The notes beneath the pieces are model-generated. The model saw only the letters and a list, made by a program, of their open reading frames with translations, was not told the origin of the DNA and did not search any database. This document shows positions 15,166-61,000 of a DNA stretch of 64,000 nt, one piece after another. The stretch is from an uncultured Hyphomicrobiales bacterium (GTDB lineage: Bacteria; Pseudomonadota; Alphaproteobacteria; Reyranellales; JAQSWP01): positions 73,190 to 137,189 of the forward strand of contig CAYWLS010000008.1 in the NCBI GenBank assembly GCA_964458605.1, given 5' to 3'. A program made the position numbers and the translations under genes. The first letter of the stretch is position 1. Each line of letters opens with the position of its first letter.

Positions 15166-15240
15166 TGGTGAGCGCGGAGGGGATCGAACCCTCGACCCTC
15201 TGATTAAAAGTCAGATGCTCTACCGCTGAGCTACGCGCTC
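15166..15240 (-). tRNA. tRNA-Lys (anticodon TTT), CCA encoded
   Basis: Folds as a cloverleaf: acceptor GAGCGCG/CGCGCTC+ACCA, anticodon arm TCTGA-CTTTTAA-TCAGA, T-loop TTCGATC. Confidence 0.97.
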
Positions 15241-39575: not shown

Positions 39576-40253
39576 TTACGCCGCCTGGCGCGCGCGATCG
39601 ACGTCGGGGCTGCGATAGAGCGCCTCCGGCACCGTCCCCAGCAGCGAGGCATGCGCCTCGCCCTCGGCCAGGCCATAGAATTTCTGGAAGCTCATGATCA
39701 GCGGCCGCCACTTGTCGGGGTCGACCCGGTCGGGCTCGGCCAGAATGCTGCGCTCGATATGGACGCGCTGGATGCGCAGCTCGATCGCCACGGTGCGGCC
39801 GCGCAGATTGGCATCGTTGGCGCCGATATGGTGCACGCCCTCGACCACCGCCTCGAGCTGCACGGGACATTCCAGCACGCGCGGCGGCGCCACGGTCAAG
39901 GAAGGTTGCGCCGTCAAGCCGGCGATGGCGAATTTGTCCTTCTCGTGCCGGTAGCCGCGCTGCTGTTTGCCCGGCGGCACCGGATCGGAGCCGGTGGTCA
40001 GTGCCAGCCGGTCGACCGCGCCGACCTGCTCGACCGAGGGCAGGTTGAGCACGCACTGGCCGGTGCGCAGCATGTTCTGCGGGGTCTTGGAGGCGGCGGC
40101 CAGGCCCAGCATGCAGCGCCAGCCCAGCCAGAAGGCCGACGACATCGGCGCCAGGTTGGCGCTGCCATCCTCGTTCAGGGTGCTGATCAGCACCACCGGG
40201 GTGCCGAAATAGAGGATCGCCGGTTCGCTCGGGACATGCATCGCTCGCTCCAT
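39576..40253 (-). CDS. Flavin reductase-like (DIM6/NTAB) family protein
   Basis: LYFGTPVVLISTLNEDGSANLAPMSS, PPRVLECPVQLE; alternative start 40241. Confidence 0.88.
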   Translation of the reverse strand: MERAMHVPSEPAILYFGTPVVLISTLNEDGSANLAPMSSAFWLGWRCMLGLAAASKTPQNMLRTGQCVLNLPSVEQVGAVDRLALTTGSDPVPPGKQQRGYRHEKDKFAIAGLTAQPSLTVAPPRVLECPVQLEAVVEGVHHIGANDANLRGRTVAIELRIQRVHIERSILAEPDRVDPDKWRPLIMSFQKFYGLAEGEAHASLLGTVPEALYRSPDVDRARQAA

Positions 40254-52049: not shown

Positions 52050-53234
52050 CTATTCGTAGGCGTCGAACAGACGGCGATGTTCCTTCAGGGCAAACCGATC
52101 GGTCATGCCGGCGATGTAATCGGCCACCAGCCGCGCGCGTCGTCGCTCGTCGGCATTGCGCGCCCGCGCTTGCCAGTCCGGCGGCAGGCATTCGGGCTCG
52201 GCGAGCAGCAGCTCGAACAGCTGGCGCACCACGCGCCGCGCCTTGGACGTCATGCGGTTGACGCGATAGTGGCGGTACATACGCTCGAACAGAAAGTCTT
52301 TCAAGCGCCTGTCCGCGGCCGACATTTCCGCCGAAAACGCGATCACCGGCCGGCCCAGATGACGGATGTCGGCCACCGAAGCCGGCCGCGCCTGGTCCAG
52401 CCGCCGCGCGCTCTGCGCCAGCACGTCGCGGATCATGCGATCGATCAGCCGCCGCGTCGTTTCATGGATCAAACGAGAATCGTCGATATTGGGATAGAGA
52501 TGGCGCACCTCGGCCACCACCTCCAGCACGATCGGCACCGCGCAGATGTCGCCGATGCTGAACAGGCCGGCGCGCAGGCCGTCGTCGATATCGTGGTTGT
52601 TGTAGGCGATGTCGTCGCTCAGCGCCGCGATCTGCGCCTCGGCGCCGGGACAGGTGTCGATCTCGAGATCCTGCAGGCGGTTGTATTCGACGATCGCCGC
52701 CGGCAGCGGCTTGTCGCGATGCCTGACCGCGTCCGGCCCGACCAGCGGCCCATTGTGCTTGACCACGCCTTCCAGCGTCTCCCAGGTCAGGTTGAGCCCG
52801 TCGAAGGCGGCGTATTTCTGTTCGAGCTGGGTCAGGATGCGCAAGGTCTGGGCGTTGTGGTCGAAGCCGCCATACGCGGCCATCGCCGCATCGAGCGCCT
52901 CCTCGCCGGCATGGCCGAACGGCGTGTGGCCGAGGTCGTGCGCCAGGGACAGCGCCTCGGCCAGATCCTCGTTCAGCCCCAGCGCGCGGGCCAGCGAGCG
53001 GGCGATCTGCGCCACTTCCAGCGAATGGGTCAGCCGGGTGCGGTAATGGTCGCCCTCGTGATAGACGAACACCTGGGTCTTGTGCTTCAGGCGCCGGAAC
53101 GCGGTGGCGTGGATGATGCGATCCCTATCCCGTTGGAAAGGCGTGCGGTTTTCGGCCTCCGGCTCGGCATGCAGCCGGCCGCGGCTGGTCGCCGCCAAGG
53201 TGGCGTAGGGACGGTGCGCTTCGCTCGGTGACAT
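52050..53234 (-). CDS. dgt: Deoxyguanosinetriphosphate triphosphohydrolase-like protein
   Basis: [57 protein letters not shown]. Confidence 0.96.
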
Positions 53235-53293
53235 GGCGGCGCTCTTATATCATCGATTGGGCGATAATCGCGCCAACAACGAGGGAGGATTGT

Positions 53294-54037
53294 ATGGGTG
53301 ACAATCTGGTGCGGCGCGACGACAGCGATGGCATCGCGGTGCTGACGCTCAGCCGGCCCCAGGCGCTCAACGCGCTGAGCCCGGCCCTGTTCGTCGAGCT
53401 GCGCAACCATGTCGAGGCGATCGCCCGGCAGACCGACGCGGTGGGCTGCGTCGTGCTGCAGGGCGAAGGTCGCAGCTTCTGCGCCGGCAACGATCTGCAG
53501 GCCATCGCCGCCGGCGAGCGCGCCCCGACGCCGACCTATCAGGCCGACACCATCCGCGCCATCGAGCTTCTGCCCCAGCCGGTGATCGTGGCGGTGCAGG
53601 ACCATTGCTACACCGGCGGGCTGGAGCTGGCGCTGGCCGGCGACCTGCTGGTCGCCGCCGACAATGCCAAATTCGCCGACACGCACGGCAAATTCGCCAT
53701 GACGCCGCTCTGGGGCATGAGCCAGCGCCTGCCGCGCCGCATCGGCCCGCTGCGCGCCAAGGAGATCATGTTCACCGGCCGCGTGGTGGGCGGGCAGGAG
53801 GCCGCCGAGATCGGCCTGGCGAATATATGCGTGCCGCAGGCCGAGCTGCGCCACCGCACCATGGAACTGGCGCGCGCCATCGTCGCCAATTCCTGGCACA
53901 CCTTGCGCGCCGACAAGAAGCTGGTGAACGAAGGCCAGAATTACGGCCTGGCCGAGGGCCTGCAGTTCGAACGCGACACCAGCCCCGGCCGCGGCCCCGA
54001 CATGGAAGAAAGGCTCAAGAAATTTGCGGGGCGTTAG
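53294..54037 (+). CDS. Enoyl-CoA hydratase/isomerase family protein
   Basis: LSRPQALNAL, FCAGNDL, TGGLELALAGD, FADTH. Confidence 0.9.
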   Translation: MGDNLVRRDDSDGIAVLTLSRPQALNALSPALFVELRNHVEAIARQTDAVGCVVLQGEGRSFCAGNDLQAIAAGERAPTPTYQADTIRAIELLPQPVIVAVQDHCYTGGLELALAGDLLVAADNAKFADTHGKFAMTPLWGMSQRLPRRIGPLRAKEIMFTGRVVGGQEAAEIGLANICVPQAELRHRTMELARAIVANSWHTLRADKKLVNEGQNYGLAEGLQFERDTSPGRGPDMEERLKKFAGR

Positions 54038-54785
54038 GCGTGTAGTGCGTGGTCGAGGCCGCTCGATCATTCAGCGGCAAGGCCAACGGCGGCATCAGCG
54101 CGTAGGCTGCCATTTGCGGATACATCGTATTGGTCAGCATATCTATGGTCATGCACGCGAACGGCCTCAACTTTGCGCCAGGCTTTCCGTCGGGCAGCCA
54201 CACCGGCCGGTTGTCCATCGGAAACAGCGTCAGCAGCTTCCGCGCGCCGGTCGGAGAAACGAGGTAGGCACACAGGCCGAATGCGCTGTTCAGTCGGGCC
54301 GTCTGCACCGGATCGGTGCTTTGCGCAAATGCGAGCAATTGATGGACGCTAGGGTGGGCGGTGGTGACGATCGGCGGCACATGTCCGGGCAGCACACCTT
54401 GCAGATCGACCAGGGCGTCGGTGTTGTAGCCCAGAAGCAGCATGTCCCACCTCGCCAATCGACCGAGCGTGGCGTTCAATTGCGGCACCAGATCGTTACG
54501 ACAGAAGGCGTCGTCTTCGAAGACCAGAAGGGGCCTGCCCGTGGTGGCGGCATAGAGCCACAAGTCGCGATGCGACGCGGCGCAACCGATCTGGCCCTTG
54601 GTGTAGAGCCGCGCGCCGGGCTTGAGCAAGGCGTGGCGCGCGCAATCCTCTTCGCTGAGCGCGTTGCCGTCGATCGCCTCGAATATTTGGAACTCCAGTC
54701 CAGTCGCGCGATTGCGTTCGAGAAACGCCGCCCGCTTCCCGGGTTCACGCCCGAGGCTTATCACGTAACACTCGTATTCCAACAT
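54015..54785 (-). CDS. Glycosyltransferase family 25 (LPS/LOS beta-galactosyltransferase-like)
   Basis: YVISL, FEAIDG, GQIGCAASH..LW, LVFEDD; atypical codon use. Confidence 0.85.
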   Translation of the reverse strand: MLEYECYVISLGREPGKRAAFLERNRATGLEFQIFEAIDGNALSEEDCARHALLKPGARLYTKGQIGCAASHRDLWLYAATTGRPLLVFEDDAFCRNDLVPQLNATLGRLARWDMLLLGYNTDALVDLQGVLPGHVPPIVTTAHPSVHQLLAFAQSTDPVQTARLNSAFGLCAYLVSPTGARKLLTLFPMDNRPVWLPDGKPGAKLRPFACMTIDMLTNTMYPQMAAYALMPPLALPLNDRAASTTHYTPNAPQIS

Positions 54786-54854
54786 TACCCTGCGACCCAA
54801 GCCCCAAAGCAAACTAGCGTCGCCGCGCAAATCCTGTAAAGCGGCAAGAGCTAT

Positions 54855-55188
54855 GGAGCACCGCCTCGCCGCGCCATCGGCATGGCCGGCAGCGGATCGG
54901 CGAACCGTGGATGGCGTGGGCAGCAGCCGCGCACGTCCTTCTTCACCCCGGCATAGTTGCCGGCCCAGCTGCGCAGATCGCCGGTCGCCCGCAATGGTCA
55001 GCCGGGCGACGACAGCATATGCTGGGCGAGCAGCAGGCGGCCGCCATGATGGCGGGCGTCGTGGCGTTACCGAACGTCTCCTGCGGTTTGCCCGACAAGA
55101 GCAGCTTGGCGGCATCGCCTTGTCGATGCGACGGCACGAACCGATTGGCCCTTCCAAATGCGTCGGCGCTACGGTGTCGAAGGCGCGG
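54855..55188 (-). pseudogene. hrpB: Decayed copy of the hrpB 3' end (direct repeat of about 58484-58823)
   Basis: 54931-54968 matches 58561-58598 at 33/38 nt; translated pieces RAFDTVAPTH, KPQETFGNATTPAI and GDLRSWAGNYAGVKKDVRGCCPRHP parallel the HrpB C-terminus, with indels. Confidence 0.88.
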
Positions 55189-55893
55189 CTAGGCCTTGGT
55201 CGCCGCTGCCCGCTCGCCGGTGACGCGGCCGTCGACCACCTCGACGATACGGTCGCAGCGATGCGCCAAATCGTGATTGTGGGTCACCATCAGGAAAGTG
55301 GTGCCCTTTTCGCGATTGATCTTGCGCATCAGTTCGAACACGCCCTGCGCCGATGCGGTGTCGAGATTGCCGGTCGGCTCGTCCGCCAGCACCAGCGGCG
55401 GATTCATCGCCAGCGCCCGGGCGATCGCCACGCGTTGCTGCTGCCCGCCCGACATGTTGGTGGCCCGGTTGTCGCGCCACCGGCTGAGGCCCACCGCCTC
55501 GAGCAGTTCGTCGGCGCGACGTTCCATCTCCTCGTTGCGCCGGTGGCGGTCGACCAGCATCGGCATCATGACGTTCTCCGCCGCGGTGAAGGCGGAGATC
55601 AGGTAGTGGTACTGGAACACGAAGCCGATGGCGTGGCCGCGCAAATGGGTGCGCTCGGCCTCCGGAAGGCGGGTGGTATCCTCGCCGGCGACCACCAGGC
55701 GGCCCGAGCTCGGCCGGTTCAGCAGGCCGATGATCTGCAGCAGGGTGCTCTTGCCCGAGCCAGACGGGCCCATCAGCGCCAGGAATTCGCCGGCATGGAT
55801 CGACAGGTCGATGTCGTGCAGCACCTCGGTCTGCACCGGCGTGCCGACATTGTAGGATTTGCAGATCTTCTCCAGGACAACGATCTCAGCCAA
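55189..55893 (-). CDS. ABC transporter ATP-binding protein (MacB/LolD-like)
   Basis: [34 protein letters not shown]; TTG start. Confidence 0.95.
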
Positions 55894-57112
55894 GGATCGC
55901 CTCCACCGGATCGAGCCTTGCGGCGCGCAGCGAGGGCGCCATGGCGGCGGCCACGCCGGTCACGGTGGCGACCGCGGCGGCGATGACGAACAGGCCCGGC
56001 CCCAAGATCAGCGGGAACAGTTCCGAGCCATCGGCCTGGCGGGCATAGCCGTGCCACCAGATCAGCGCGCCCGCCCCCATCGCCGAGCCGATCAGCGAGC
56101 CGGCGAATCCCAGCACGCCGCCCTGGATCAGGAAAATGCGCAGGATCTGGCCACGCGAGGTGCCCATGGCGCGCAGGATGCCGATGTCCTTGGAACGCTG
56201 GATCACCGACACCACCAGCACCGCGGCGATGCCGAACGCCACCGACAGGCCGACAAAAAAGCGGATCAGGGTGTTCGAGCTGCTCTGCGCCCGCAGCGCG
56301 GTGAAGAACTGGGCGTTGGTCTTGATCCAGCTTTCGGCCTGCACCGGCAATACCGCTTCGATGTCCTGGGCGATCGTGTCGGCTGCGTAGATGTCGTCGA
56401 CGGTCATGTCGATGGTGGTGACGCCGCCGATCAGGTTGAGCAGGCTCTGGCCGGTGCGCAGCGCCACGAAGGCGATGCGCTCGTTGGCTCCCTTGTTGCC
56501 GAGGTCGAAGATGGCGCGCACCGTCAGCACCCGCCCGTCGCCCCGTGCGGTGGCGACGTTGAGCTTGTCGCCGACGCCCACGCCGAGATCCTTGGCCAGT
56601 TCGGTGCCGATCAGGATGTCCTCGCTGTCCAGCCGCACCTCGCCGGCCACGATATAGTCGGGCACCCGCACGATCCTGAAATAGAGATCGGGGTCGATTC
56701 CGGCGATGCTGATCGAGCGGCTGGCGTCGCCGCGCACCGCCAGCGCCGAACCGCTCGCGGTCGGCGTCGCCAGCACCACGTCGGGCCGCGCCCGCATCGA
56801 GCGCAGGACGGTCTGCCACTGGTCGATGGTCAGGACGCGTTGCGAGGGCCGTTGCACGTTGGCCAGCTCGAAGGTACCGGCGTCGTAGCGCAACGGCCGC
56901 GCCACCTCGTCCGGCGGCAGCAACTGGATGTGCGGCTGGGAGGTCAGCACCCGCTTGATGAAGTTGCTCTGCAGGCCGGTCAGGATGGCCGACAGGAACA
57001 CGATCACGCCCACGCCGGTGGCGACGCCGGCCAGGATGAAAAAGGTCTGGGTACGGCCCTCGGCGAGGAAGCGCAGCGCCGCGATCCACTCGAAGCTCAG
57101 CAGCCGCCTCAT
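55886..57112 (-). CDS. ABC transporter permease (MacB-PCD/FtsX family)
   Basis: TM1, large periplasmic domain, DIGILRAMG...[19 protein letters not shown]. Confidence 0.93.
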
Positions 57113-58362
57113 GAGCCGTTGACCACGGGCCGGACGCGCTGGCCCGCGCGCACGCCGGCCGCCAGCGGCACCACCAGGTCGCCCGGCACCAGCCCGTCGA
57201 GGATTTCGACATCGTCGGCGCCGCGCAACCCCAGCCTGACCACGCGGGCGACGGGCCGGCCGTTGCGGATCACCAGCACCCAGGGCCTGGCGGCGGTCGG
57301 ATCGTGGATGGCGCGGGTCGGCGCCACCACGGTCTGGTTGCGGCGATCGACCTCGATGTCGACGGACACGGTCATGTCCTGCCGCAGATAGGCCGGCGGA
57401 TCGGGCACGGTCAGCTTGACCTCGACCGAGGCGCGAGCGATGTCGACCGACGGGTTGATGTAACTCAGCGTGGCGGCGAAGCGCTGGTCGGGATAGGCAT
57501 CGGTCGAGGCCAGCGCCGCCTGCCCCAGCTTCAGCAGGCCAAGATTCTTCTCGTCGATCTGCAGCACCAGCTGGGTGTCGCCGCTGGGCGCCAGCACCAG
57601 CAGCGCCCGGCCGGCCTGGACCACGGTGCCGCGCTCGACGTTGCGCGTGATCAGCACCCCGTCGCGCGGCGCCAGGATGGTGGTGTAGCCCAGCCGCGCC
57701 TGCGCCGTGGCCAGCGCCGCCTCGGCCTGGTTCAGCTCGGTCTCCGCCACCACGTAGTCGCTGCCGCCCGGGCTGGCGGTATAGACCTGAAGCTGCGCCG
57801 TTCGCACCTGGGTGCGGGCGACGTCGAGATCGCGCGTCGCGGCATCGAGCGTCGCCTTGGTGCCGTAGCCGGTGCGCGCCAGCTGATCGGCGCGCGAATA
57901 GGCAGCCTCGGCATTGGCCAGATTGGCCTGGGCCTGCTTCAGCGCTTCCTGGGCCGCGGGCAACGCCACCTCGCGCATCTGGCGCAGCTTGGCCTGGGCC
58001 TGGGCCACGAAGCCCTGCGCCTGCACCACCGCGGCATTGAGTTCGGCGGTCTCCAGCACGACCAGCTTCTGGCCGCGCTTGACCGTTTGTCCCTCCTCGA
58101 CCAGCACCTCTTGCACCGTGCCGGTGATCTGGCTGCCGATCTCGACGCGGAACGGCGTCTGGACATGGCCGCTGGCCACCACGCTGCGCACCACATCGCC
58201 ACGCTGCACGCGATAGACGATCACCTCGGGCCCGACCAGCCAGCGCGCCACCAGCAGGCCCGCGCCCAGCACGGCAAGAACGCCGGCCAGCAGCGCCCAA
58301 CGGGGTTTGATCGACAACAGCCGGCCCAGGCCGGGAATGGAACGCAACTTCATGCCGCGCAT
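57109..58362 (-). CDS. Efflux membrane fusion protein (MacA/HlyD-like periplasmic adaptor)
   Basis: N-terminal anchor, VEIGSQITGTVQEVLVEEGQTVKRGQ.L, coiled coil, ILAPRDGV, YLRQDMTV. Confidence 0.93.
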   Translation of the reverse strand: MRGMKLRSIPGLGRLLSIKPRWALLAGVLAVLGAGLLVARWLVGPEVIVYRVQRGDVVRSVVASGHVQTPFRVEIGSQITGTVQEVLVEEGQTVKRGQKLVVLETAELNAAVVQAQGFVAQAQAKLRQMREVALPAAQEALKQAQANLANAEAAYSRADQLARTGYGTKATLDAATRDLDVARTQVRTAQLQVYTASPGGSDYVVAETELNQAEAALATAQARLGYTTILAPRDGVLITRNVERGTVVQAGRALLVLAPSGDTQLVLQIDEKNLGLLKLGQAALASTDAYPDQRFAATLSYINPSVDIARASVEVKLTVPDPPAYLRQDMTVSVDIEVDRRNQTVVAPTRAIHDPTAARPWVLVIRNGRPVARVVRLGLRGADDVEILDGLVPGDLVVPLAAGVRAGQRVRPVVNGS

Positions 58363-58388
58363 GTAAGCCGACGCGGCGGTCCAGGCGT

Positions 58389-58402
58389 TTGTCCGCGATC
58401 AA
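58389..58402 (-). promoter_or_regulatory. Imperfect FNR/FixK-like box (TTGAT-cgcg-GACAA)
   Basis: One perfect half-site and two mismatches in the other, just upstream of the efflux operon. Confidence 0.3.
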
Positions 58403-58480
58403 GGTCGATGCTTTTTATTTGCGCCGCAACGCCATGCGATTCCAGGCAATCGCCTGGAGTTCCAGCACCTTAGCCGCCGC

Positions 58481-61000
58481 TCAGGAGCGCCGCTTGGCCC
58501 GCGCCGTCGGTGGAGCGGCCAGCGGATCGTCGGGCCAGGGATGGCGCGGGTAACGGCCGCGCATATCCTTCTTCACCTCGGCGTAGCTGCCGGCCCAGAA
58601 GCCGCCCAGGTCGCTGGTGACCTGCAAGGGCCGGCCGGCCGGCGACAACAGATGCAGGGTGAGCGGCAGCCGGTCGCCGACGATGGCCGGCGTGGCGGCG
58701 CTGCCGAACATCTCCTGCAGCTTGACCGCCAGCACCGGCTTGGCGGGATCGCCGTAGTCGATGCGATGGCGCGCGCCGGACGGCACCGGCCAATGGGTCG
58801 GCGCCAGGGTGTCTAGCGCGCGGCGCTGCGGCCAGTCGAGCAGGCCGGCGATGGCCTCGCCGAGATCGAGTTCGCGCAATTTGTTGAGCGACGTCACGCC
58901 CGCCAGATGCGGCGCCAGCCATCGCTCCAGCGTGTCGAGCAGCGCGGCGTCGGACAGGTCGGGCCAAGCCTCGCCCTCGATCGCGCGCACCGCCGCCACG
59001 CGCTGGCGCAGCGCCTGCACCGCGGGCGACAGAGCCAACGTCGCGAGGCCGCGCTTGCGCACCGCCTCGATCAAAGCCTGCGCGATGCGCTCCTGCGGCG
59101 GCGTCTTGAGCGGCTTGTCGTCCAGCACCAGCAGGCCCAGCACGCGCTGGCGCCGCGCCAATACGCTCGAGGATCGCTCGTCCCATTCGACCAGGTCGCG
59201 TGAGGCGATGTGCGATTCGAAATGCGTCTCGATCTCGGCCAGGCCCAGCGGCGCGGCCAGATAGATCGCGCCCTCGGCGCCGGCGCCGTCCATCTCCGCC
59301 ACCGCCAGGAAGGGCTCGCCGGCCAGGCCGTCGGCGGCGTCGAGCACCGCGCCGCGGCCGTTGGACATGACATAGCGCGGCTCGCCGCCCATTTCGCCAT
59401 GGGGCCTGCGCCGCGCGATGCGATCGGGATAGGCGAAAGCCAGCAGCAGCCCGGCGCGGTTGGGATCATCGTCGGTCTCGGCAAAGCCCATCTGCCGGCG
59501 CCAGCGCTCGGCCAGCCGCGAGGCCCGCCGCGCCGCGCCGTCGTTGACCCGCAAATCGCGATGGACGGCGCCGCCGCGCAGCGCCTCCAGCCGCAGCCGC
59601 AGATCGGCCTGCCGCCGGCCGCGCTCGGCGCGCATGATGTCGCGATCCTCCAGCAAGGCGGCGATGCGACAGGCGGTGGCACCCAGGCCCAGCGTGCCGC
59701 CGCGCACAATCATATGCGACAGGCGCGGATGCACCGGCAGCCGGCTCAACGCGCGACCATGGCGGGTAATGCGATTGGCGGCATCGAGCGCATCGAGGTC
59801 GCGCAGCAATTGCCGGGCCAGCGCAAACGATGCCGCCGGCGGCGGCGTCATCCATTGCAATTGGACGGGATCGGCAACGCCCCACAGCGCCAGGTCGAGC
59901 GCCAGCGGCGCCAGGTCGGCATTGATGATCTCCGGCGCCTCGGCACGCGGCAAGGCCTTGTTCTCCGCCTCCGGCCACAGCCGGTAGCACACGCCCGGCG
60001 CGGTGCGGCCGGCACGGCCACGACGCTGATCTGCCGAGGCCAGGCTGGCGCGCCCCGTCACCAGCCGGCTCATGCCGCTGGCGGGATCGAAGGCGGCGCG
60101 GCGGCTCAAGCCGGCATCGACCACCACCCGCACGCCGTCGATGGTCAGGCTGGTCTCGGCGATGGCGGTGGACAGCACGACGCGACGGCGATCGGACCGA
60201 TTGGCGGCCACGGCCCGGTCCTGCGCCTCTTGCGGCAACTCGCCATAGAGCGGCATCACTTCCGCATCGCCCGGCACGCCCTGGGCCAGCAGCCCCTCGA
60301 CCCGGCCGATCTCGCGCACGCCGGGCAGGAACACCAGCACGTCGCCTTCACTGTCGCGCAGCGCCTGGCGCACCGCCTGCGCTACGTGGGCTTCCATCGT
60401 CAGGTTGGGTGGCGGCGGCAGGTAGCGGGTTTCGACCGGGAACAGCCTTCCCTGGCTGGTCAGGATCGGCGCGCCGCCCAGCAGCGCCGCCACCGCCTCG
60501 CCATCGAGCGTGGCCGACATCGCCACCAGGCGCAGATCGGGACGCAGCCCGCGCTGCACGTCGATCGCCAGCGCCAGGCCCAGATCGGCCGCCAGGCTGC
60601 GTTCGTGGAACTCGTCGAACAGGATGGCGCCGATGCCCGGCAGTTCGGGATCCTCCTGCAGCATGCGGGTCAGGATGCCCTCGGTGACCACTTCCAGCCG
60701 CGTGGCGCGGCTGACCTTGCTGTCGTCGCGCACGCGATAGCCCACCGTGCCGCCCAGCGCATCGCCGAGATTCTGCGCCAGGCGTCGGGCGACGAGGCGG
60801 GCCGCCAGCCGGCGCGGCTCCAGCATGACGATCTTGCGGCCCTCGAGCCATTCCTCGTCGAGCAGCCAGAGCGGCAGCAGGGTCGACTTGCCGGCGCCGG
60901 GCGGCGCCTGCACCACCAGTGCGTTGCCCCGGCGCAGCGCTGCCTGCAGGTCGGACCGGATATCTTCGATCGGCAATGCCATCAGCGGGTTGTGCGCCAT
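58481..61000 (-). CDS. hrpB: ATP-dependent RNA helicase HrpB
   Basis: APPGAGKST, EPRRLAAR, DEFHERS, TAIAETSLTIDG, QRRGRAGR, RYPRHPWP. Confidence 0.97.
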   Translation of the reverse strand: MAHNPLMALPIEDIRSDLQAALRRGNALVVQAPPGAGKSTLLPLWLLDEEWLEGRKIVMLEPRRLAARLVARRLAQNLGDALGGTVGYRVRDDSKVSRATRLEVVTEGILTRMLQEDPELPGIGAILFDEFHERSLAADLGLALAIDVQRGLRPDLRLVAMSATLDGEAVAALLGGAPILTSQGRLFPVETRYLPPPPNLTMEAHVAQAVRQALRDSEGDVLVFLPGVREIGRVEGLLAQGVPGDAEVMPLYGELPQEAQDRAVAANRSDRRRVVLSTAIAETSLTIDGVRVVVDAGLSRRAAFDPASGMSRLVTGRASLASADQRRGRAGRTAPGVCYRLWPEAENKALPRAEAPEIINADLAPLALDLALWGVADPVQLQWMTPPPAASFALARQLLRDLDALDAANRITRHGRALSRLPVHPRLSHMIVRGGTLGLGATACRIAALLEDRDIMRAERGRRQADLRLRLEALRGGAVHRDLRVNDGAARRASRLAERWRRQMGFAETDDDPNRAGLLLAFAYPDRIARRRPHGEMGGEPRYVMSNGRGAVLDAADGLAGEPFLAVAEMDGAGAEGAIYLAAPLGLAEIETHFESHIASRDLVEWDERSSSVLARRQRVLGLLVLDDKPLKTPPQERIAQALIEAVRKRGLATLALSPAVQALRQRVAAVRAIEGEAWPDLSDAALLDTLERWLAPHLAGVTSLNKLRELDLGEAIAGLLDWPQRRALDTLAPTHWPVPSGARHRIDYGDPAKPVLAVKLQEMFGSAATPAIVGDRLPLTLHLLSPAGRPLQVTSDLGGFWAGSYAEVKKDMRGRYPRHPWPDDPLAAPPTARAKRRS

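Follow-up and report, generated by a model that had tools for sequence, protein, structure and literature searches.

In a 64,000-nucleotide (nt) stretch of DNA from an uncultured Hyphomicrobiales bacterium (contig CAYWLS010000008.1, positions 73,190 to 137,189; called the window here), an operon for a predicted efflux pump lies directly behind hrpB, an intact gene for an ATP-dependent DEAH-box helicase, and is enclosed by two direct copies of the hrpB 3' end. The upstream copy, R1 (58481..58824, minus strand), is the functional end of hrpB, and the downstream copy, R2 (54853..55189, minus strand), is a decayed, noncoding remnant. The operon is missing from this site in related bacteria, and the two copies are each other's closest relatives. 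We consider it likely that a single duplicative insertion, independent of a recombinase, brought in the operon and copied the 3' end of the recipient's own hrpB in doing so.

In gene orientation, the minus strand carries hrpB, the genes for a periplasmic adaptor (MFP), a permease, and an ABC ATPase, an hrpB-like stretch, and the gene for a family 25 glycosyltransferase (GT25), which is followed by a convergent ech gene on the plus strand. A first-pass annotation, made from the letters of the DNA and a list of its open reading frames (ORFs), had described the "intergenic" stretch of about 400 base pairs (bp) after the ATPase gene as an indel-riddled direct repeat of the hrpB 3' end. Alignment bore this out. 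R1 and R2 are 75.4% identical over 341 nt with four gap openings (blastn, E = 4e-63), and a MAFFT alignment agrees with this repeat. The annotation had staked its reading on a formal alignment rising above chance; the local alignment score of R1 and R2 was 263, compared with 22 ± 2.7 (maximum, 35) in 300 shuffles. A repeat search of the window resolved the similarity into four collinear blocks with offsets of 3630 to 3635 bp, in line with the offset of about 3.63 kilobases (kb) given earlier. The identity of 33/38 positions quoted for 54931-54968 and 58561-58598 was reproduced exactly, and the two quoted 28- and 29-mers were located at 55104-55131 and 58738-58766. Read in the codon register of hrpB, the remnant also matches the Pfam family HrpB_C (PF08482; E = 1e-18) at profile positions 34 to 133 of 133.

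The alignments place the start of the repeat at hrpB codon 726 and its end at the stop codon, so that R1 comprises the last 114 codons of the gene, including the stop; R1 measures 344 bp and R2 about 337 bp. No similarity above that of shuffled sequences was found past either end of the repeat (3' of the stop codon; 5' of 58824/55189), and a duplication reaching into the spacers past the stop, or upstream into the ATPase gene, was ruled out by shuffle-controlled alignment. The last base of the repeat, 55189, is the third base of the TAG stop codon of the ATPase gene (55189-55191); the earlier placement of the start of the copy at the base after this stop was right to within 1 nt. Between R1 and R2 lie the MFP, permease, and ATPase genes with a 118-bp leader and nothing else, which matches the proposal that the copies enclose only the operon and its promoter region. 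Two independently assembled sequencing runs (SRR11845619 and SRR11845634) yielded contigs with 100% identity to the window, among them L081, which carries both junctions, and the occupied state was found in all contigs with an identical HrpB or GT25.

Comparison with relatives revealed that the operon site is polymorphic. In the protein collection, the closest relatives of the window's HrpB were P0002 (81%), P0003 (79%), and P0004 (78%), followed by a Reyranellaceae group at 66 to 69%; the identity of 78 to 81% at the amino acid (aa) level to P0002-P0004 extends along the whole length of the protein. The collection scans with HrpB gave one useful relative among the matches listed, L001 (69%). 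The window's HrpB is the outgroup (80 to 81%) to a P0002/P0003/P0004 clade whose members are 85 to 89% identical to each other. On the contig that encodes P0003 (L163; GCA_041691755.1), the order is ggt-hrpB-[15 bp]-GT25-ech-dGTPase-argS; on that of P0004 (L164), it is ggt-hrpB-ech; and in L001, L167, and L169, hrpB abuts or overlaps ech. None of these five loci contains the operon. The empty site that the first-pass annotation had suggested looking for in relatives thus exists in all five.

The window and L163 are collinear at about 80% nucleotide identity on both sides of the insert. Between these flanks, positions 58487..54738 of the window have no counterpart in L163 except for the remnant, which realigns to the L163 hrpB 3' end at 70%. 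The pair of remnant and GT25 lines up with the hrpB 3' end and GT25 of L163 (the GT25 stretch at about 79% nucleotide identity), so that the remnant occupies the place of an hrpB end. These alignments show the operon to be an insertion behind hrpB, in a locus whose core synteny, ggt-hrpB-[GT25]-ech-dGTPase-argS, is kept in relatives.

The first-pass annotation had proposed that the cassette entered through the hrpB 3' end, bringing a replacement end that displaced the native one, and that the present C terminus of HrpB may therefore be foreign. The empty sites uphold the insertion; the relationship of the two copies speaks against the foreign replacement. R1 and R2 formed a clade in 1000/1000 neighbor-joining bootstraps of five sequences (R1, R2, and the hrpB ends of L163, L164, and L001) and in 998/1000 when three more outgroups brought the set to eight. 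At sites where three close outgroups agree, the copies have 14 derived substitutions in common, compared with about 2 expected by chance according to a hand estimate; with six unanimous outgroups, they share 6 compared with 1.15 expected (P = 0.001). The shared characters include AAGAAG (KK), where L163 and L164 have CGGCGC and L001 has CGCAAG; GACACC, where relatives have GATCGC or GATCGT; and a 3-nt deletion just 5' of the stop codon that is not present in close relatives. Because R1 is sister to R2 and shows its lineage-specific characters as well, R1 is not foreign.

The body of hrpB points in the same direction. Third-position divergence from L163/L164 was 0.31 to 0.34 inside the repeat and 0.29 to 0.43 upstream of it, with no step at aa 726/727, and protein identity per HrpB segment was likewise flat. 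The comparison of hrpB before and after the boundary, and of the remnant, which the first-pass annotation had recommended as separate trees, therefore gave sister copies and no step. In addition, the C terminus of P0002 is of the ordinary clade type, 91 to 93% identical to those of P0003/P0004 and 83% identical to that of the window. P0002 is the only other relative in which an efflux operon follows hrpB, and the P0003/P0004-like end of its HrpB argues that there is no common element-borne end. Both repeat copies thus come from the recipient lineage's own hrpB. This agrees with one part of the fallback offered in the first pass, an old local duplication: the local origin of both copies stood, and we tie the duplication to the insertion rather than treating it as a separate event.

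Since the duplication, the two copies have evolved differently. Where the three close outgroups are unanimous, 48 substitutions are private to R2, even over the codon positions (21/18/9), and 11 to R1; the small number of lineage-specific substitutions in R1 is consistent with purifying selection. R2 has also lost 6 nt, its frame is broken, and it contains an in-frame stop. Its GC content is 0.686, compared with 0.733 in R1. Measured from the node that joins them, R2 has a branch length of 0.227 and R1 one of 0.052, and the stem they share adds 0.06. By these lengths, the duplication took place about halfway between the split of the window's lineage from the L163/L164 group and the present. 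At most 12 consecutive nt are now identical between the copies, so that the operon could hardly be removed by homologous recombination, and we judge the insertion to be locked in. Searches of the remnant, the spacers, and the junction for Rfam families, significant folds, and promoter or terminator consensus sequences were negative, and nothing suggests a surviving function. The pattern is one of neutral decay, and R2 is a noncoding pseudogene fragment, with R1 apparently kept by selection.

The cargo is encoded by three minus-strand genes. The MFP gene (57109..58362; 417 aa) matches Pfam HlyD_D23 and HlyD_3 and scores 175.9 bits with NCBIfam TIGR01730 (RND_mfp; cutoff, 94.9); it also matches the MacA model (E = 5.6e-34), under the equivalog cutoff of that model. 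The gene for a MacB/LolCE-type ABC permease (55886..57112; 408 aa) contains Pfam MacB_PCD (PF12704) and FtsX (PF02687) and is LolCE-like, under the equivalog cutoff. The ATPase gene (55189..55893; 234 aa; Pfam ABC_tran) is LolD/DevA-like, again under the cutoffs. The permease and ATPase are separate genes, unfused unlike MacB, and the MacB equivalog score is far under its cutoff. The operon is predicted to encode a MacB-type (type VII ABC) tripartite pump composed of an adaptor and a split permease/ATPase. Since all equivalog scores are under the cutoffs, this pump is not MacAB, LolCDE, or DevBCA proper. The gene for an outer-membrane factor is not in the operon.

Relatives of the operon occur in unrelated surroundings. 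An operon of Mesorhizobium sp. (L166) is 77% identical to it at the nucleotide level over 3036 bp with eight gap openings (75%, 73%, and 75% at the aa level for MFP, permease, and ATPase, respectively) and lies between ftsH and an Nramp gene, not beside hrpB; the tail of the window's ATPase is 3 aa shorter than that of its L166 homolog. The window's HrpB and that of Bradyrhizobium are just 48 to 49% identical. Searches with the permease and MFP returned homologs 70 to 83% identical across Xanthobacter, Bosea, Mesorhizobium, Alsobacter, and even other phyla; ATPase searches among representatives gave just distant or duplicated ATPases, and tail lengths vary among homologs. In a metagenomic copy, L165 (MFP, 79%), the module is shared from window position 58406 onward at 79% nucleotide identity, and the upstream flank is unrelated. 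Because the L165 alignment starts at 58406, the leader of the operon (58363..58406, minus strand), a putative promoter and ribosome-binding-site region that aligns to the region 5' of MFP in L165, travels with the module. No sigma-70 consensus was found in this leader.

The genes called around the L166 operon, out to about 6 kb on each side, include neither an hrpB fragment nor a mobile-element gene. PLSDB contained no plasmid with the operon; its matches were generic ATPases that covered no more than 17% of the query. The GC content of the operon is 66 to 72%, compared with 71 to 74% in hrpB, so that composition does not set the operon apart. Taken together, the comparisons suggest a portable module that would have reached the window's lineage by horizontal transfer. 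Between the MFP and permease genes, there is a 4-bp overlap in the window (57109-57112) and in L166 (7218-7221) and a gap of 8 bp in L165 (1373/1381) and in both contigs of JGI sample 3300048101 (P0002 and P0123); the module seems to exist in two subtypes.

We found no integrase, insertion sequence (IS), or transposase in the insert or within about ±14 kb of it; the first pass had likewise seen no integrase inside, and the insert holds the MFP, permease, and ATPase genes only. Out to about 14 kb, every neighbor is a housekeeping gene (serS, pcm, scpAB, nagZ, a SPOR-domain gene, argS, and similar). The sole tRNA is at 15166, with none within about ±14 kb of the insert, and there were no Rfam matches. 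One breakpoint lies in the short spacer between hrpB and GT25, and the other lies within hrpB, 340 bp from its end, and meets the ATPase gene at or in its stop codon.

On the hrpB side, a 74-bp spacer 3' of the hrpB stop (58407..58480, minus strand) is common to no comparator, and the left novel junction falls somewhere inside it; from the hrpB stop to the MFP start, the distance is 118 bp in total. On the far side, a 67-bp spacer (54786..54852, minus strand) extends from the former stop of the remnant to the start of GT25 and corresponds to an L163 spacer of 14 to 15 bp. The spacers after R1 and R2 have no mutual similarity, and no significant RNA fold was found in the 67-bp spacer. A hairpin at 58441-58460 (CCAGGC-AATC-GCCTGG, 6 to 7 bp) lies about 20 nt past the hrpB stop; it has no T-run, and its fold (z = -1.6) is not significant.

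These observations can be joined into one course of events. The ancestral order in a Reyranellaceae-related alphaproteobacterium would have been ggt, then hrpB, followed or not by GT25 in the same orientation, then a convergent ech. A horizontally acquired three-gene module of about 3.3 kb with its own short leader would have entered the short spacer 3' of the hrpB stop, and the same or a tightly coupled event would have doubled the last approximately 340 bp of the recipient's hrpB. One copy would then complete hrpB upstream of the insert and the other would come to lie between the ATPase stop and GT25, with no site-specific recombinase involved. Insertions that cut hrpB without duplicating its end would presumably be selected against, and this would account for finding the duplicative outcome alone. 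From that point on, the upstream copy would have been kept by selection while the downstream copy drifted to about 0.23 substitutions per site plus frameshifts.

At the molecular level, there are three candidate routes. Two joins, illegitimate or through microhomology, could have captured the module at a replication fork or on different sister chromatids, with an outcome like a very long target-site duplication. Alternatively, a homologous anchor in hrpB could have been combined with one illegitimate join, as in homology-facilitated illegitimate recombination. A circular intermediate that carried an hrpB fragment of the same lineage might also have integrated by a Campbell-type single crossover. 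All three routes fit the geometry, and a choice between them needs the donor sequence.

Several points weigh against a single duplicative insertion. At the novel junctions, where microhomology could be verified only against the donor, the leads are a suggestive resemblance, GGCC..AG / CAGCGC, between the ATPase 3' end and hrpB near 58824 and the shorter tail of the window's ATPase. A single event is the parsimonious choice, and the duplication could also have preceded or followed the insertion. Gene conversion between the copies could mimic their sister relationship; the identity of R1 and R2 is even along the repeat, at 72 to 79% per block, which speaks against a conversion tract. The close relatives number three, P0002 among them at the protein level only. 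P0002 also has an MFP-permease operon right after hrpB, and given this operon the history of the site may be more complex than one insertion. Bacterial genomes tend to lose nonfunctional DNA, and it is somewhat unexpected that a useless 340-bp remnant with about 23% neutral divergence has lost only 6 nt.

The P0002 operon and GT25 raise the question of whether the hrpB/ech junction has taken up DNA more than once. On the P0002 contig (JGI sample 3300048101; 4706 bp), a 412-aa MFP and a permease lie directly 3' of hrpB after a 204-bp spacer. This MFP is absent from the 120 best matches to the window's MFP (identities of 62% and above), and the P0002 operon is therefore probably different from that of the window; its identity was assessed indirectly, and its partial permease ranks below the 120 best permease matches. 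GT25 is present in the window and in L163 (4038-4784) and absent from L164, L001, L167, and L169. It has the lowest GC content in the region, 61 to 65%, and this together with its patchy presence suggests that GT25 may be an earlier insertion at the same junction. On a broader view, the hrpB/ech junction would act as a landing pad that this clade has used repeatedly, without a recombinase, for at least three separate arrivals (GT25, the window's operon, and the P0002 operon), and the 340-bp duplication would be the footprint of replication-fork or interchromatid capture of foreign DNA. We offer this view tentatively and hold it to be doubtful. If true, it would concern a capture mechanism so far shown only in laboratory transformation of streptococci and Acinetobacter.

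Other histories could lead to a locus of this shape. Had the duplication and the insertion been separate steps, either a tandem duplication of the hrpB 3' end or of the whole gene followed by an operon that landed between the copies and deleted most of the second, or an operon that arrived first and had the hrpB end copied across it later, then the end structure would be identical to that of a one-step event, and the other insertions at the hrpB/ech junction (GT25 and the P0002 operon) make repeated events plausible. Such a course needs two or three rare events whose breakpoints match the operon ends to 1 to 2 nt, and no intermediate was seen in any relative; we think it unlikely. A different account places the event before the split from P0002-P0004, with the operon lost from the relatives by recombination between R1 and R2 and with the window's copies homogenized by conversion. 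Recombination between the repeats would leave the site cleanly empty again, a parallel being e14 excision or the formation of icd-icdC chimeras (PMC13626634), and the operon of P0002 sits at the same place. However, the more distant family members all have the empty hrpB-ech arrangement, the P0002 operon is probably a different one by the ranking of its MFP, the divergence of the copies shows no conversion tract, and extra events are required. An old origin of this kind seems improbable to us.

The anatomy of the locus is also like that of icd ... e14 ... icdC, in which an intact gene is followed by an insert and a displaced C-terminal pseudogene (PMC13626634). An integrative element of this style would have supplied a foreign gene end and displaced the native one, and its integrase and the rest would have been deleted later. 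Such an origin would account for the empty sites in relatives, and the position of the remnant, directly at the ATPase stop, could be a product of that deletion. It conflicts with the sister relationship of R1 and R2 and their common lineage-specific characters, with the lack of a divergence step in hrpB at the repeat boundary, and with the C terminus of P0002, which is not R1-like despite the operon after its hrpB. Neither the insert nor the surrounding ±14 kb or so offers an integrase, IS, or tRNA, and the Mesorhizobium operon stands in surroundings free of hrpB fragments and mobile-element genes over the 6 kb or so noted above. The phylogeny has already largely refuted this model, which we regard as very improbable. 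Finally, the window and its relatives appear to be metagenome or short-read assemblies, in which a chimeric join might produce a false insertion. The agreement of two independently assembled runs, the presence of both junctions on L081, and the 75% identity of the copies, which is too low to mislead an assembler, leave almost no room for such an artifact. A single duplicative insertion remains the reading that we prefer.

Of the flanking genes, hrpB (58481..61000, minus strand; 839 aa) is a full-length match to the NCBIfam equivalog TIGR01970 (1031.5 bits; cutoff, 546) and contains the Pfam domains DEAD, Helicase_C, CON_HrpB, and HrpB_C (E = 7.8e-54 for HrpB_C). GT25 (54015..54785, minus strand; 256 aa; Pfam PF01755, E = 2.9e-19), which is also called in Logan contigs, is the native downstream neighbor of hrpB in the clade. 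Beyond it, on the far side of the insertion-prone junction, lies ech (53228..54037, plus strand), which matches NCBIfam enoyl-CoA hydratase families. Farther out, a dGTPase-like gene and argS follow on the ech side, and ggt and a DUF1028 gene on the hrpB side. In the more distant Reyranellaceae relatives L167 (10430-11068) and L169 (10420-11058), a TerC-family gene lies between ech and the dGTPase gene; it is absent from the window, L163, and L001 and marks a further small indel in a block that is conserved otherwise.

The reading frame of GT25 stays open across most of the remnant, up to a TTG at 55157, giving an ORF of 380 aa (54015-55157, minus strand). We rejected this ORF as a real extension of the gene because gene callers and the L163 ortholog place the start at about 54785; the open frame is probably a chance feature of GC-rich DNA. 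Within the permease gene, positions 56432-56462 match window positions 40041-40071 over 31 nt at 93.5% identity, probably also a chance match between GC-rich sequences.

The biological consequences of the insertion are modest and amount to the gain of a predicted efflux pump. GT25, which is 15 bp 3' of hrpB in L163, is now separated from it in the window and probably relies either on read-through out of the efflux operon or on a promoter in the remnant. More broadly, the window offers a clean case from nature in which a core-genome locus gained an apparently foreign operon without mobile-element machinery, and it illustrates how the target gene can come through such an insertion undamaged when part of it is duplicated. 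There is also a lesson for annotation. A gene-end repeat around an insert resembles an att scar, and only the phylogeny of the copies separates an element-borne end from a self-duplication.

Among known pumps, the cargo resembles MacAB-TolC, LolCDE, and DevBCA in having an adaptor, a four-helix FtsX-type permease with a MacB periplasmic core, and a LolD/DevA-like ATPase. It shares the gene order adaptor-permease-ATPase with devBCA and differs from MacB in that the permease and ATPase are separate polypeptides.

Among known insertions, one that matches in outward form is icd/e14/icdC of Escherichia coli K-12, where a prophage with an integrase enters the icd 3' end and brings an alternative end (PMC13626634). 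Both loci have an intact functional gene, an insert, and a C-terminal pseudogene in direct orientation, and in both cases relatives have an empty site. Unlike the window's insert, e14 has an integrase, carries a foreign gene end, and can excise; the insert in the window consists of three cargo genes without a recombinase, both hrpB ends are host derived, and the copies are too diverged to recombine. Because the recombinase and the foreign replacement end are both missing, the locus is not to be classed with the e14/icd type.

In Streptococcus pneumoniae, incoming DNA bridges sister chromatids and yields tandem duplications with donor DNA at the junction (PMC3784515). A fragment pairing at two positions on sister chromatids would similarly leave the interval between them duplicated. 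The pneumococcal duplications involve IS861 repeats and 100 to 900 kb, whereas the interval in the window is 340 bp and at least one join must have been nonhomologous. The locus also resembles Campbell-type and illegitimate integration, including the homology-facilitated and double illegitimate recombination of Hulter and Wackernagel (2008), as far as that work is cited in PMC12359135. As in those processes, there is no dedicated recombinase, recipient sequence lies on both sides of the insert, and the breakpoints are arbitrary. The laboratory cases, from Acinetobacter and streptococci, are mostly deletions or short joins, whereas the event in the window is natural, ancient, and set in an uncultured alphaproteobacterium. 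We would file the locus under insertion-duplication, or illegitimate integration, as a naturally occurring case of a scar type already known.

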